Shown: piece after piece, positions 50,905 to 60,947 of the stretch
How the letters are laid out: every line of letters starts with the position of its first letter
Numbering within the stretch: position 1 is the first letter of the stretch
Assembly (NCBI GenBank): GCA_963821935.1
Contig: CAWGFM010000005.1
Span: forward strand, 254,551-318,550
From: an uncultured Actinomycetes bacterium
GTDB lineage: Bacteria > Actinomycetota > UBA4738 > HRBIN12
Direction: 5' to 3'
Length of the DNA: 64,000 nt
Position numbers and translations under genes: made by a program
The notes under the pieces: generated by a model
Told to the model about the DNA's origin: nothing
The model's database searches: none
The model's input: the letters and a program-made list of their open reading frames with translations, nothing else

Positions 50905-52107
50905 TCACGATCGATCTCCGCCCGTGCGCTTGCGCTCCCTGATGCGCTCGACCCCTTTGTAGTTGGCGAGTGCCGAGAGCTCATGCTCGATCTGCACCAG
51001 GTCCGCCTGGTCGCGCATGACCTGATCGATCGGCTTGTAGGCATCGGGATGCTCGTCCAGCAAGGCATGCGCGTCCGATGCCTGCCACGAACGACCGGCC
51101 ATCTGGTCCTCGAGCGACTCGACGGACAACGTGGTGCGAGCCTTGGTCCGACTCATCCGACGCCCGGCACCGTGGGAGGACGACCGATACGAGGCATCGT
51201 TGCCCAGGCCGCGCACCACGTAGGAACGTTGCCCCATGCTGCCCGGGATCAAGCCGCGCGAGCCCACGCCGGCGTGGATGGCGCCCTTCCGGGTGATCCA
51301 TAGCCGGCGGCCATCGAACTCTTCGAGCTCCGTGTAGTTGTGGTGGCAGTTCACCTCGTCGGTCGGCGTCAGCTCCCGCCCCAGCATCACCTCGAGCTGC
51401 CGGTGGGTGGCGACCAGCATGAGCCGTCGGTTCTCGCCCGCGTAGGCCTGGGACCACGCCAGGTCTCGGATGTAGGCGTCGAACTCCGGGCTCCCCTGCT
51501 GGAGCCAGGCCAACTCGGGATCCTCCAGCTGCGTGCCGAGTCCGGCGTGCAGTCGCTTCGCCGTCTTGGTGTGCAAGGTCGCCAGCTTGTTGCCTCCACC
51601 ACGAGAGCCGGAGTGCAGCAGGATCCAGACCCAACCGTCCTGGTCGCCGGCCAGCTCGATGAAATGGTTGCCAGAACCCAGCGTGCCGAGCTGGATGGCT
51701 GCCCGCTCGTGGTCGGCAAGCGTCGGCGGCGGCGGGTGCTTCGCGAGCCAGGCCCTCGCCTCGTCCGATGCCTCGCCGTGCCAACGTCCGAGCCCGGCCG
51801 GGACGGCCCGGCGCATGCGGTCCACCCAAGCGTCCAGCCCCGCGTCAGGAAGCTGGTCGGCGCGGATCCGAAGGCGCCGCGCCGCCATGCCACACCCGAT
51901 GTCGACCCCGACGGCCGATGGGATGACGGCAGTCTCGGTGGGGATCACCGACCCGATCGTGGCGCCCATGCCCAGATGGGCGTCCGGCATCAGGGCGATG
52001 GGACCGGCCAGGATGGGCAGCCGCGCGGTTCGCGCCGCCTGCTCGGCGGTCACGTCGTCCAATTCGCTTGCCCAGCTCAGCACGCCGGGCGCGATCTCTC
52101 GGGGCAT
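50905..52107 (-). CDS. rtcB: RNA-splicing ligase RtcB (3'-phosphate/5'-OH RNA ligase)
   Basis: Metal- and GMP-binding motifs DAHLGMGATIGS, GSGNHF, HNYTE and SSSHGAGR, and the histidine for guanylylation. 400 aa. Confidence 0.9.
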   Translation of the reverse strand: MPREIAPGVLSWASELDDVTAEQAARTARLPILAGPIALMPDAHLGMGATIGSVIPTETAVIPSAVGVDIGCGMAARRLRIRADQLPDAGLDAWVDRMRRAVPAGLGRWHGEASDEARAWLAKHPPPPTLADHERAAIQLGTLGSGNHFIELAGDQDGWVWILLHSGSRGGGNKLATLHTKTAKRLHAGLGTQLEDPELAWLQQGSPEFDAYIRDLAWSQAYAGENRRLMLVATHRQLEVMLGRELTPTDEVNCHHNYTELEEFDGRRLWITRKGAIHAGVGSRGLIPGSMGQRSYVVRGLGNDASYRSSSHGAGRRMSRTKARTTLSVESLEDQMAGRSWQASDAHALLDEHPDAYKPIDQVMRDQADLVQIEHELSALANYKGVERIRERKRTGGDRS

Positions 52108-52166: not shown

Positions 52167-52562
52167 TCAGCGCTTCGAGTACTGCGGGGCCTTCCTGGCC
52201 TTCTTGAGGCCGTACTTGCGACGTTCCTTCTCACGCGCATCGCGCGTGAGGTAGCCCTCGGCTTTGAGCTGGGCCCGCAGACCGGGATCCAGCTCGATGA
52301 GGGCTCGGGCGATGCCCAACCGGATCGCTCCCGCCTGCCCGCTGATGCCACCGCCCTTGATCGTGGCCACGACGTCGAAATCCTTCTCGCGGCCGACCAC
52401 CCGCAGGGGTGATTGCGCGACCATGCGATGGACGCGCGTCGGGAAATAGTCCTCCAGATCGCGGCCGTTGACGTCGAACTCACCGGTGCCGGGCACCAGG
52501 CGCACGCGGGCCACCGCTTCCTTGCGGCGTCCTGTGATGATCGTTGCTGGGGTCAGGGCCAC
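52167..52562 (-). CDS. rpsI: 30S ribosomal protein S9
   Basis: 131 aa, ending ...[12 protein letters not shown]. Confidence 0.96.
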
Positions 52563-52566
52563 GAAC

Positions 52567-53382
52567 TTACTCCTCGGAGGTCGTCTCGGACGCCGGCGTG
52601 CTCGACGTCTCCTCGTTCTCGGTTGTCTTCGCCGCGGCAGGCTTCTTCGCGGCAGGCTTCTTGGTCGTCGTGGGCTTCTTCGTGGTCTTCTTGGCTGCGC
52701 TCGTCTTCTTGGCTGCGCTCGTCTTCTTCGCTGTTGGCTTCTTCGCGGTCGTCTTCTTGGCCGTTGGCTTCTTCTTGGCTGTGGTCTTCTTGGCCGTCGA
52801 CTTCTTCTTGGCTGCGGTCTTGTCGGCCGTGGTCTCCTCCGTGGGACCTTCGGGCTCCGCGGGCTCCGGCTCGGTAGTCGGCTCGTCCCTCACCAGACGC
52901 CGGCTCGTCCCTTTGACGGCGGGCGAGGGCAAGCCCTCCCACATCGGGGGCTGGCCGAAGGTGTAGTCGACCGGCTGTTGGGCTCCGTGCGGGTGCTGTG
53001 CGCCGGCGACGACGTGCAGCTTCTTGATCATGGTTCGGCCCAGACGGTTCTTGGGCAGCATGCCCCGGACGGCCTTCTCCACGGCGAACACCGGCCGGGT
53101 CGCGAGCAGCTCGTCGTAGCGGATCCCGGTGATGCCGCCTGGGTAGCCGGAATGCCGGTAGGCGACCTTCTTCAGCTCCTTGCCGCCGGTCAGCTCCACC
53201 TTGTCTGCATTGATCACGATCACGTGATCGCCGGTGTCCATGTGCGGCGCGAAGATGGGCTTGTGCTTGCCCCGCAGCAGCGCCGCGACTTCAGACGCGA
53301 CGCGACCCAGCACCCGTCCACTGGCGTCGACGACGTACCAACGCCGCTCGATGTGCTCAGGCTTCGGAGAGTAGGTCTTCAT
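52567..53382 (-). CDS. rplM: 50S ribosomal protein L13 with ~125-aa Lys/Ala/Thr-rich repetitive C-terminal extension
   Basis: N-terminal 146 aa is canonical L13 ([20 protein letters not shown]...[11 protein letters not shown]). The same frame then continues through (T/S)AKK(T/K) repeats to a stop 4 nt before rpsI. Confidence 0.9.
52620..52830 (-). repeat. tandem ~12-15-nt DNA repeats (ggcttcttcgcg / gtcttcttggc variants) encoding the (AKKT)n tail of L13
   Basis: Visible periodic cttcttggc/cttcttcgc units on the plus strand through this interval. Confidence 0.7.
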
Positions 53383-54597: not shown

Positions 54598-55527
54598 CTA
54601 CTCCTCCCGGAGTCCAAGGCCCAGCTCCTCGAGCTTGGCCTTCACCTCGTCGATCGACTTCTGTCCGAAGTTGCGGATGTCCATCAGCTCGGACTCGCTC
54701 TTGAGCACCAGGTCGCCGACGGCGTTGATGCCCTCACGCTTGAGGCAGTTGTAGGAGCGGACCGACAGGTTGAGCTCCTCGATCGTGATGGCGTAGTCGC
54801 CCGGGACCTCTTCGTCCTCGGCGGGGCCTACCGTCACGCTGGCGGCCTCCGCGAGCTCGCTGAACAGCTGCACCAGCTCCAGCATGGTGCCGCCGGCCGA
54901 GGCCACGGCCTCGCGCGGGGTGACGGAGCCGTCGGTCTCGACGTCCAGGATCAAGCGATCGCGGTCGGTCATCTGTTCCACGCGCGTGTTCTCCACGGCG
55001 TAGCTGACCTTGCGCACGGGCGAGAAGATCGAGTCGACCGGGATGACACCGATCGGGTCGCGGGGCTTCTTGTTCTTGTCGGCCATGCGGTAGCCGACGC
55101 CGCGTTCGACCGTCATCTCCATCTCGAGCGAGGCTCCCTTGCCCAGCGTGGCGATGTGAAGCTCGGGGTTCAAGATCTCGACGCCCGCGGGCGGTGCGAC
55201 GTCGCCGGCGGTGACCTCGCCGGGGCCCTTGGCCTTCAGGTAAACCGTGGTCGGTTCCTCCAGGTCGGATCGAACGACCAGCTCCTTGAGGTTCAAGATG
55301 ATGTCCGTGACGTCTTCGGTGACCTTGGGGATGGTGGAGAACTCGTGCAGCACCCCGTCGATGCGGACCGACGAGATGGCCGCGCCCGGGATGGACGACA
55401 GCAAGGTCCGGCGAAGCGAGTTGCCCACGGTGTAGCCGAACCCGGGTTCCAGCGGCTCGATGGCGAACTTGGAGCGGGTCGGTGAAACGATGTCCTCAGC
55501 GATCTGAGGCCTGGCGACGATGAACAC
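54598..55527 (-). CDS. rpoA: DNA-directed RNA polymerase subunit alpha
   Basis: N-terminal domain [17 protein letters not shown] and a C-terminal domain with helix-hairpin-helix ([13 protein letters not shown]). Confidence 0.96.
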
Positions 55528-55576
55528 GTACTTCCCTCCTTCGGCGGGGGATCAACCACTGCTACCCCGCCATCTG

Positions 55577-55657
55577 CGCCGGGGACGAGCCCCGGCCTAC
55601 ATTCCTCTGGAGCGCGCTAGACGCGGCTTCTCTTCTTGCGCCGCGCTAGACGCGGCG
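55577..55657 (-). repeat. intergenic rpsK-rpoA hairpin cluster: gccgggg-acgag-ccccggc plus two copies of gcgcgctagacgcggc (one overlapping the rpsK stop)
   Basis: Palindromes seen directly. This is the position where rpsD normally sits in actinobacterial alpha operons. Confidence 0.4.
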
Positions 55658-60130: not shown

Positions 60131-60309
60131 GAGAGTTCCTCGACGTCGACCAGATGCGACACCTTGGCGATCATGCCGCGGATCTCGGGCCGGTCCTCCT
60201 TGATGACGGAGTCACGGATGCGGTGCAGGCCCAATCGCCGAACGGTGGCCTTCTGATCCTTCGGCCTGTCGATCACGCTGCGGACCTGCGTCACCTTGAG
60301 CTGGCTCAT
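60127..60309 (-). CDS. rpmD: 50S ribosomal protein L30
   Basis: 60 aa, starts [20 protein letters not shown] overlaps on both sides. Confidence 0.94.
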
Positions 60310-60947
60310 CGGCGGCCTCCCCGGCCGGGCTGCTGACGTTGCTGGCGTGGCTGTGCGTCGCTGTAGACCTCTTCGAGCGCCGCGGTGCGTGCCGCCTGGA
60401 GCCGAACCTCGGCGGCCGCGACCGCTTCGAGCATGGGCTTGGGAGCGACCTCGTGCACGTCGCGACCCCGCAGCGCAGCAACTTGGGCGGGCTTGCGCAG
60501 GTCCTTCAGTCCCTGCACGGCCGCCTTCACGATGTTGATCTGATTGGACGACCCCATGGACTTGGACAAGATGTCCTTGATGCCGGCGCACTCGACCAGT
60601 GCCCGCACCGGCCCGCCGGCGATGACGCCCGTTCCCGGTGCAGCCGGCTTGAGCAGGACGACGCCGGCACCGGCCTCGCCGACCACCTTGTGCGGGATGG
60701 TGGTGCCCATCATGGGCACCTCGAACATCTTCTTGCGTGCCTCTTCGACGCCCTTGGCGATCGCCGCGGGCACCTCCTTGGCTTTGCCGTAGCCCACGCC
60801 GACCCGGCCCGCGCCATCGCCGACCACGACCAGCGCGGCGAACGAGAAGCGTCGCCCGCCCTTGACCACCTTGGCGACCCGGTTGATGGAGATGACCCGC
60901 TCTTCGTAGGGGCTCTTCTCTTCGTTCCTGGCGTCATACCGTCGCAT
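60306..60947 (-). CDS. rpsE: 30S ribosomal protein S5 (with C-terminal Gln/Arg-rich extension)
   Basis: Canonical S5 core followed by a ~45-aa tail, 213 aa. Confidence 0.95.

Follow-up and report, generated by a model that had tools for sequence, protein, structure and literature searches.

The rplM gene described here lies in a 64,000-nucleotide (nt) stretch of DNA from an uncultured Actinomycetes bacterium (contig CAWGFM010000005.1, positions 254,551 to 318,550), referred to below as the window, and it encodes a ribosomal protein L13 (uL13) of 271 amino acid residues (aa). With high confidence, the gene is genuine and its product consists of a normal uL13 core and a translated, disordered extension of ∼125 aa. 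Rather than the oddity of one genome, this extension is a trait inherited within an uncultured Actinomycetota lineage. By analogy with other lysine-repeat proteins, it may be an anchored polycationic tail at the solvent side of the 50S subunit, with ribosomal RNA (rRNA) or another nucleic acid as its ligand; this statement as a whole, description included, was given somewhat better than an even chance.

The extended uL13 and its coding sequence

Based on profile searches, the rplM product belongs to the uL13 family: Pfam PF00572 matched it with 153 bits (cut-off 23.8), and the NCBIfam equivalog model TIGR01066 (rplM_bact) with 184 bits (cut-off 93). The gene is placed in the rplM-rpsI operon, downstream of rpoA-rplQ-truA, and the gene order rpoA-rplQ-truA-rplM-rpsI is kept in the relatives. 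The L13 core comprises aa 1-142, and the C-terminal extension of ∼125-129 aa follows in the same frame; the best solved relative is a uL13 of 147 aa, and the alignment with it reaches aa 143 of the window protein. At 271 aa, the protein falls outside the length that is typical of bacteria (about 137-148 aa, with the end ∼10-15 aa past the HPH..Q.P motif), and this excess defines a variant while membership in uL13 is unaffected. The exact protein was not found in a collection of 15 billion proteins; its closest relative, P0001 (269 aa), is 93% identical. The features of the gene, in window coordinates, are as follows.

52567..53382, minus strand: full rplM open reading frame (ORF), encoding the 271-aa uL13 with its C-terminal extension (TAA stop, 52567-52569, included)
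52990..53346, minus strand: canonical Ribosomal_L13 domain, aa 13-131 (Pfam PF00572, E 4e-45)
52927..52956, minus strand: conserved motif G-x-x-P-x-W-x-G-L-P, aa 143-152, which opens the extension and is presumed to serve for docking or anchoring
52885..52926, minus strand: variable spacer of 14 aa, aa 153-166, the position of a second motif in 70/117 relatives, degenerate in the window
52822..52884, minus strand: acidic Pro-rich linker of 21 aa, aa 167-187
52621..52821, minus strand: lysine-repeat array, aa 188-254, with 12 units of K1-3 followed by 2-5 residues of A/T/P/S
52570..52620, minus strand: acidic tip of 17 aa, aa 255-271
52570..52575, minus strand: GAGGAG, the last two Glu codons of rplM and the Shine-Dalgarno (SD) site of rpsI, 7 nt upstream of its GTG
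52167..52562, minus strand: rpsI (uS9, 131 aa; Pfam Ribosomal_S9, E 1.6e-48), the translationally coupled partner of rplM

An initial annotation of this DNA had described an L13 whose long Lys/Ala/Thr tail is encoded by tandem DNA repeats, and this was borne out by the ORF, by Pfam and by Tandem Repeats Finder (TRF), which showed the repeats to be degenerate. Its layout of linker, repeats and tip stood, and the acidic linker (17 aa) and acidic tip (17 aa) that it quoted were both present as quoted; the 26 aa between 'DY' and the linker, which include the most conserved part of the extension, had been omitted. Where about ten repeats had been given, 12 K-units were counted. The tandem array, for which units of 12-15 nt had been given, was also found. 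According to TRF, it is irregular over 52633-52830 (scores 43-129): periods of 12, 15 and 18 nt occur alongside higher-order ones of 30, 33 and 48 nt, and the youngest copies are 96-100% identical (18 nt × 2.7 copies; 15 nt × 2 copies). The distance of 4 nt between the end of the extension and rpsI was correct, since the frame ends with TTSEE-TAA (stop 52569-52567) and is followed by GTTC and then by the rpsI GTG at 52562, with S9 confirmed by Pfam. The net charge was −6 for aa 163-182 in the linker region and ∼ +21 for the lysine-repeat array.

The structure of the protein was predicted by AlphaFold2 with the 117-sequence family alignment described below. The core reached predicted local distance difference test (pLDDT) values of 73-88 over most of its length, and from ∼aa 133 on the values were below 60 and no secondary structure was present. 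The model thus predicts an extension that is intrinsically disordered from ∼aa 133.

As shown by the base composition at third codon positions (GC3), the coding character is continuous from the core (0.87) into the tail (0.88), whereas the two alternative frames of the repeat region reach 0.35 and 0.61. Within that region all 26 lysines are encoded by AAG, and the tail is the sole Lys-rich tract across all six frames of the window. The best 120 matches among 5.8 billion proteins were all 224-314 aa long, that is, extended L13s, and a motif-targeted scan of metagenome contigs gave 80 further loci. A set of 77 independently assembled loci, each with a complete ORF and a definable rpsI junction (including the window, L001, L002 and L081-L083), showed an uninterrupted ORF through to a stop abutting rpsI, with no stop at the canonical position. 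The core DNA of L083 is ∼99% identical to that of the window, and its array differs only by whole-codon insertions or deletions (indels) and reshuffled units, giving 269 vs 271 aa; in-frame array indels were also found relative to L081. Within the near-identical '...PAKTEE' clade, the segment from the HPH motif to the stop varies between 134 and 144 aa.

An assembly or annotation artefact, in which a lost stop codon or a frameshift fused L13 to downstream sequence, was rejected with near certainty: some database representatives are plainly frameshifted or chimeric (P0261, P0279, P0003 and P0099), but the same open frame recurs in the 77 loci from many assemblies, every indel between the window and its relatives is in-frame, GC3 and codon usage continue from core to tail, and the SD and start of rpsI are positioned by reference to the extended stop and leave no intergenic sequence to spare. 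The initial annotation had named such a fusion as what would undo its claim, and had pointed to RplM lengths in relatives and to a repeat number that may differ between strains; the fusion is excluded by the open frames and the continuous GC3, the best 120 relatives all have the extended length, and the in-frame differences between the window and L083 and within the '...PAKTEE' clade show that the repeat number does vary between close relatives. The exceptional representatives P0003 (292 aa), P0099 (314 aa), P0261 and P0279 are apparent chimeras or frameshifts, consisting of two fused L13 copies or of out-of-frame tails running into rpsI, and they call for caution in automated surveys of L13 length. 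For annotation, the L13s of 224-314 aa are not to be handled as fusions or errors.

Distribution, conservation and the rplM-rpsI junction

Among the matches listed, a canonical L13 of 144-148 aa ending in ...TQVAQ was found in 76 of the 80 named Actinomycetota loci (Streptomyces, Microbacteriaceae, Streptosporangiaceae and others), and the extension-bearing genomes were only L001 ('uncultured Actinomycetes bacterium') and L002 ('Actinomycetota bacterium'). These two were also nearest to the window by S9 (79%), L17 (77%) and RpoA (76%). Solved structures of bacterial uL13 have no C-terminal extension, and the longer chains (D. radiodurans and one M. tuberculosis construct) are extended at the N-terminus only. 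As the initial annotation had stated, the tail is therefore not a standard feature of L13. The length of uL13 is reported to be essentially constant in bacteria outside the candidate phyla radiation (PMC9297842), and the lineage with the extended L13 is an exception to this constancy. Extended L13 was suggested for some Streptomyces and Streptosporangiaceae loci by tblastn matches past residue 144; these candidates were dropped, as translation gave ordinary 147-aa proteins.

Extended L13s are present in public databases and are labelled simply 'L13' (e.g. TMK90078.1, 240 aa); a literature search found no account of a Lys-repeat tail on bacterial L13. Soil and sediment appear to be the origin of the metagenome contigs with the extension, judging by how their samples and sources are named. 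A search of representatives at 50% identity was noisy, with many fragments, N-terminally over-called ORFs and frameshifted representatives, and in it the motif family reduced to a few clusters. Two further L13s, P0319 (231 aa; KPKAK-type) and P0385 (205 aa; AKKxA-type), have Lys-rich C-terminal tails without the W-x-G-L-P motif, and these tails are probably independent acquisitions in other lineages.

The family alignment contained 117 sequences, with cores 63-97% identical to that of the window. G143, P146, W148 and P152 were invariant, G150 and L151 were at least 90% conserved, and W.G[LI]P was present in 116/117 sequences. The element G-x-x-P-x-W-x-G-L-P thus adjoins the core as a conserved stretch, a trait also expected of ordered lineage-specific extensions of ribosomal proteins such as the uL13c helix of chloroplasts. 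Mean pairwise identity was 0.82 for the core, 0.74 for the motif and 0.36 for the rest of the tail. The second motif, (E)LK[TP][RKW]H, also read as (E)LKTRH(R/L)T, is replaced by GTSRRLVRD or similar in the window (aa 153-166) and its nearest relatives.

The tails of the family are composed of K (20.5%), A (19.6%), T (17.4%), P (10.8%) and E (7.5%), with a median of 27% basic residues and a K/(K+R) ratio of 0.89. Net tail charge ranged from +2 to +29 (median +17) in the 117-sequence set, and 68 of the 72 unique metagenomic tails were net positive (median +20). According to the charge per residue by tail fifths (+0.08, +0.03, +0.34, +0.35 and +0.05), the profile is conserved, the near-neutral first two fifths are family-wide, and the net charge of the final 8 aa averages −2.4. 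The length of the tail after the motif spans 66-126 aa. The Lys-repeat DNA turns over fast by in-frame duplication and deletion, and length and positive charge are retained. The motif, the length range and the positive charge were shown to be under selection.

The tail ends with EE in 93/117 sequences. Forty-seven unique rplM-rpsI junctions of the extended family were compared with 65 canonical actinomycete junctions having a definable SD (66 unique junctions in all). The gap between the rplM stop and the rpsI start was 0-13 nt in the extended family vs mostly 17-78 nt in canonical loci. An AGGAG-type SD was located within the rplM coding sequence at 40/47 extended junctions vs 1/65 canonical ones, and it overlapped the stop (TAA-GGAG) at 7/47 vs 1/65; in the intergenic spacer, where 63/65 canonical junctions have their SD, none of the 47 extended junctions did. 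In the extended family, the SD stands 6-10 nt upstream of the rpsI start. When the gene ends in ...GAG GAG stop, the protein ends in EE; AAG GAG TCG/ACG stop, with GTG directly after, gives KES or KET, and AAG GAG GAC gives KED. Clades with TAA-GGAG end in SE, SD, TE or TK, not EE.

The terminal GAGGAG codons thus owe their fixation to a second function, as the Shine-Dalgarno sequence of rpsI, the tightly coupled next gene, and the most conserved feature of the acidic tip is, on the evidence of the junction sequences, an mRNA signal. As the sole cause of the acidic tip, the SD was rejected, since the TAA-GGAG clades keep acidic tips (AETESD, PAETDTE). The terminal -SEE of the window protein also resembles the end of E. 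coli S6, where RimK adds glutamate residues; this idea was not retained, since the EE is accounted for by the SD overlap. The double use of GAGGAG is a compact case in which the translation signal of a downstream gene constrains how a protein ends, and a warning against taking conserved C-terminal residues as protein-level function.

Possible roles of the extension

In the favoured mechanism, the W-x-G-L-P motif would anchor the start of the tail on a neighbouring surface element of the 50S subunit, either rRNA or protein, at the solvent face in the region of the 23S rRNA 3′ end. From its sequence conservation, W-x-G-L-P may act as a short linear motif whose docking site is provided by an adjacent part of the ribosome. 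The lysine-repeat block would serve as a non-specific polycation on a nucleic-acid backbone, its likeliest target being the ribosome's own rRNA surface, in assembly and/or in the mature particle, and the acidic linker and tip would temper this binding.

Binding of the rRNA backbone by the window repeats would parallel the DNA binding of the same repeat type in actinobacterial TopA and HupS. Actinobacterial lysine repeats, the nearest known parallel to the window array, have the form K1-2(A/T/N)3-5 and occur in the C-terminal domain of TopA, as well as in HupS/HupB, FtsK, Ku and HrdB; in Streptomyces TopA they are required for DNA binding by this domain, and they end in two acidic residues whose removal raises its DNA affinity (PMC5714199). 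Like the TopA-type repeats, those of the window are degenerate tandem units of K1-2 and 3-5 small neutral residues (A and T; P/S in some genera) that form the C-terminal end of a protein from a high-GC actinobacterium, their copy number varies between relatives, and the array terminates in two acidic residues (EE). The published definition is fitted only in relaxed form, with 12 K-units when P and S are allowed (spacers of 2-5) and 3 under the strict A/T/N definition. Unlike TopA, the host is a ribosomal protein, so that the expected ligand would be RNA rather than DNA. The window tail is, moreover, Thr-rich (17%) and preceded by the W-x-G-L-P motif and an acidic linker, and its terminal EE is explained by the overlap with the rpsI SD, not by a clamp function.

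A ribosomal precedent is provided by the chloroplast 50S subunit. There, uL13c is one of the proteins, with uL3c, bL17c, bL19c and bL32c, that adjoin the 4.5S rRNA, which corresponds to the 3′ tail of 23S rRNA, and its plastid-specific basic extension contacts the 3′ end of 23S rRNA and the 5′ end of 4.5S rRNA and is held by bL21c and uL22c (PMC5694952). In both cases the same protein is extended, and the uL13c extension uses its basic residues at rRNA ends; the neighbourhood of uL13 can therefore accommodate functional extensions. The chloroplast extension is, however, an ordered alpha helix at the N-terminus that makes up for the missing helix H98, whereas that of the window is C-terminal, of low complexity and predicted to be disordered.

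Several observations weigh against an anchored, rRNA-binding tail. In the AlphaFold2 monomer model, the motif has a pLDDT below 50, as do aa 133-144 and 152-172, and it is not packed on the L13 core; the anchor is accordingly argued from conservation. An rRNA or other nucleic-acid partner is likewise put forward from analogy and conservation. The second motif, ELKTRH, has been lost in the window's own subclade, and rapid repeat turnover is equally expected of a weakly constrained appendage. Four motif-bearing relatives (L094, L125, L126 and L136) have net acidic tails (−3 to −7) without Lys repeats, and L002 (JBKPBM010000197.1, Actinomycetota bacterium GB_EKS_MAG_00078) has the motif with an Arg/Gly/Ala-rich tail, which could be a genuine variant or a frameshifted AAG-rich array (AAG AAG read one base on gives AGA AGA). 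The acidic and Arg-rich tails indicate that the polycation is not indispensable. The four acidic-tailed relatives are at the same time natural 'charge-swap' variants of the extension.

The nearest alternative, held to be possible and clearly less probable, is a weakly constrained or neutral appendage on the exposed and tolerant C-terminus of uL13, where a shift of the stop codon exposed GC-rich sequence and replication slippage expanded it into a low-complexity tail of Lys, Ala and Thr. The tail would then persist because it is harmless, with selection acting only on its first 10 residues and on the SD-bearing last codons. The low tail identity of 0.36 with frequent indels, the wide range of post-motif length, the acidic and Arg-rich tails and the predicted disorder are all consistent with such an origin. 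So are the motif-less proteins P0319 and P0385, which imply that Lys-rich tails arise easily on L13, and the frequency of lysine repeats in high-GC actinobacterial proteomes, with 554 proteins in 22 Streptomyces proteomes (PMC5714199). Against neutrality, the tail has been kept across a lineage deep enough for identities of 76% in RpoA and ∼63% in the L13 core, and no reversion to ∼147 aa was seen among the best 120 relatives. Net positive charge, the preference of K over R and the block order (neutral/acidic, basic, acidic) are kept in ∼94% of the unique tails. Such a tract is, moreover, found only once in 64 kb of DNA that encodes several other ribosomal proteins, and 125 extra residues are costly on a highly expressed protein.

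An outward action of the tail was considered unlikely. Here the polycation would tether ribosomes to nucleoid DNA, mRNA or polyphosphate or would bridge ribosomes in dormancy, or free uL13 would be nucleoid-associated or regulatory. The composition matches that of DNA-binding lysine repeats (PMC5714199), borderline matches to Hc2-type proteins were obtained, and ∼100 disordered residues, if fully extended, could reach beyond the particle. The histone H1-like AlgP associates with polyphosphate granules (PMC9239181), and outside the ribosome E. coli uL13 represses the translation of rplM-rpsI (PMC10931766). However, uL13 joins the ribosome early in assembly and in a fixed stoichiometry with 23S rRNA (PMC10931766), so that most copies would lie beside a vast excess of rRNA phosphate, and the relatives with acidic tails speak against an essential role in DNA tethering. 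A more specific form was rated slightly lower again: a tether of the TopA/HupS type that couples ribosomes to the nucleoid, mRNA, polyphosphate or each other, anchored through W-x-G-L-P and switched by the acidic blocks, perhaps aided by acetylated Lys or phosphorylated Thr. If true, this tether would be a ribosome-integral counterpart of linker histone, for example for transcription-translation proximity or the storage of dormant ribosomes.

It is very unlikely that the tail is a platform for modification or turnover, where acetylation, Ser/Thr phosphorylation or pupylation would tune ribosome activity or mark ribosomes for degradation. The tail is disordered by prediction, with 20% Lys and 17% Thr, acetylation of the HupS lysine repeats modulates DNA affinity in Streptomyces (PMC11229371), and pupylation is an actinobacterial lysine modification (PMC8223512); this support is circumstantial throughout, and no modifying enzyme was linked to the locus.

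Neighbouring genes, related proteins and significance

The window also encodes S5, L15, S13, S11, L17, SecY, Adk, Map, RpoA, TruA, RtcB, GlmM and GlmS, and Rfam and tRNA scans of it found no RNA element. An RtcB RNA-ligase gene (50905-52107, minus strand) stands directly after rpsI and before glmM and glmS; the same arrangement was seen in L082 and L083, and L081 lacks it. The usual order in actinomycetes is S13-S11-S4-RpoA; in the window no rpsD (S4) is present between rpsK (S11) and rpoA, where the gap (55527-55646) is only ∼118 nt, and likewise in L081 and L082. The uS5 ORF (60306-60947, minus strand; 213 aa) continues for ∼50 residues past the Pfam S5_C domain, and by its sequence this tail may be a second C-terminal extension of a ribosomal protein, of a Gln/Arg-rich type.

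The L13 tail had also been called histone-H1-like, which holds for its composition, not for profile membership or for a linker-histone domain. Pfam HC2 (PF07382) scored 38.1 bits on the whole protein and 40.1 bits on the tail alone, against a gathering score of 40, and the NCBIfam models NF038052 and NF038053 reached 29 bits (cut-off 135) and 30 bits (cut-off 80). The winged-helix domain of linker histones (Pfam Linker_histone) was not detected at E ≤ 1, whether the whole protein or the tail was scanned, and the (S/T)PKK motifs of H1 are absent from the window tail, whose units are (S/T)AKK or PTAKK. The bacterial H1-like proteins (chlamydial Hc2, PF07382/NF038052; the Burkholderia protein, NF038053; Pseudomonas AlgP, PMC9239181) share Lys/Ala-rich tandem repeats with the tail and differ from it as stand-alone proteins associated with the nucleoid or polyphosphate. 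Judged by these scores, the likeness to Hc2 and H1 is compositional and is not homology. Weak NCBIfam matches of the window protein to valyl-tRNA synthetase and adenylate kinase models indicate that Lys/Ala tails recur on the housekeeping proteins of bacteria.

Comparable extensions are found on other ribosomal proteins. The uS19 of Parcubacteria (PMC9297842) likewise has a lineage-specific Ala/Lys-rich C-terminal region, without a Pfam domain, on a universal ribosomal protein; it concerns another protein and phylum, is five times shorter (∼25 aa), and is described, from comparative genomics, without an anchor motif or acidic blocks. Insect RpL22 and RpL23a (PMC1934995, PMC3074143) also combine a conserved core with a lineage-restricted, Lys/Ala/Pro-rich, H1-like extension of low complexity, whereas these extensions are eukaryotic, N-terminal and on other proteins, and the nuclear or chromatin roles proposed for them have no bacterial counterpart. 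Lysine-repeat or low-complexity tails and lineage-specific extensions of ribosomal proteins are thus known kinds of element; the useful specifics of the present case are a conserved motif, the presumed anchor, and an SD within the ORF that accounts for the terminal EE.

In the lineage described here, an essential, early-assembly protein is nearly doubled in size by a disordered polycation, and this holds for a whole and widespread soil lineage. The extended uL13 implies that long appendages of low complexity, of the type seen in eukaryotes, are possible on the ribosomes of bacteria. With its fixed anchor motif, its fast-evolving charge block and its acidic-tail variants, the family offers a natural system for asking what a tail does on the ribosome.

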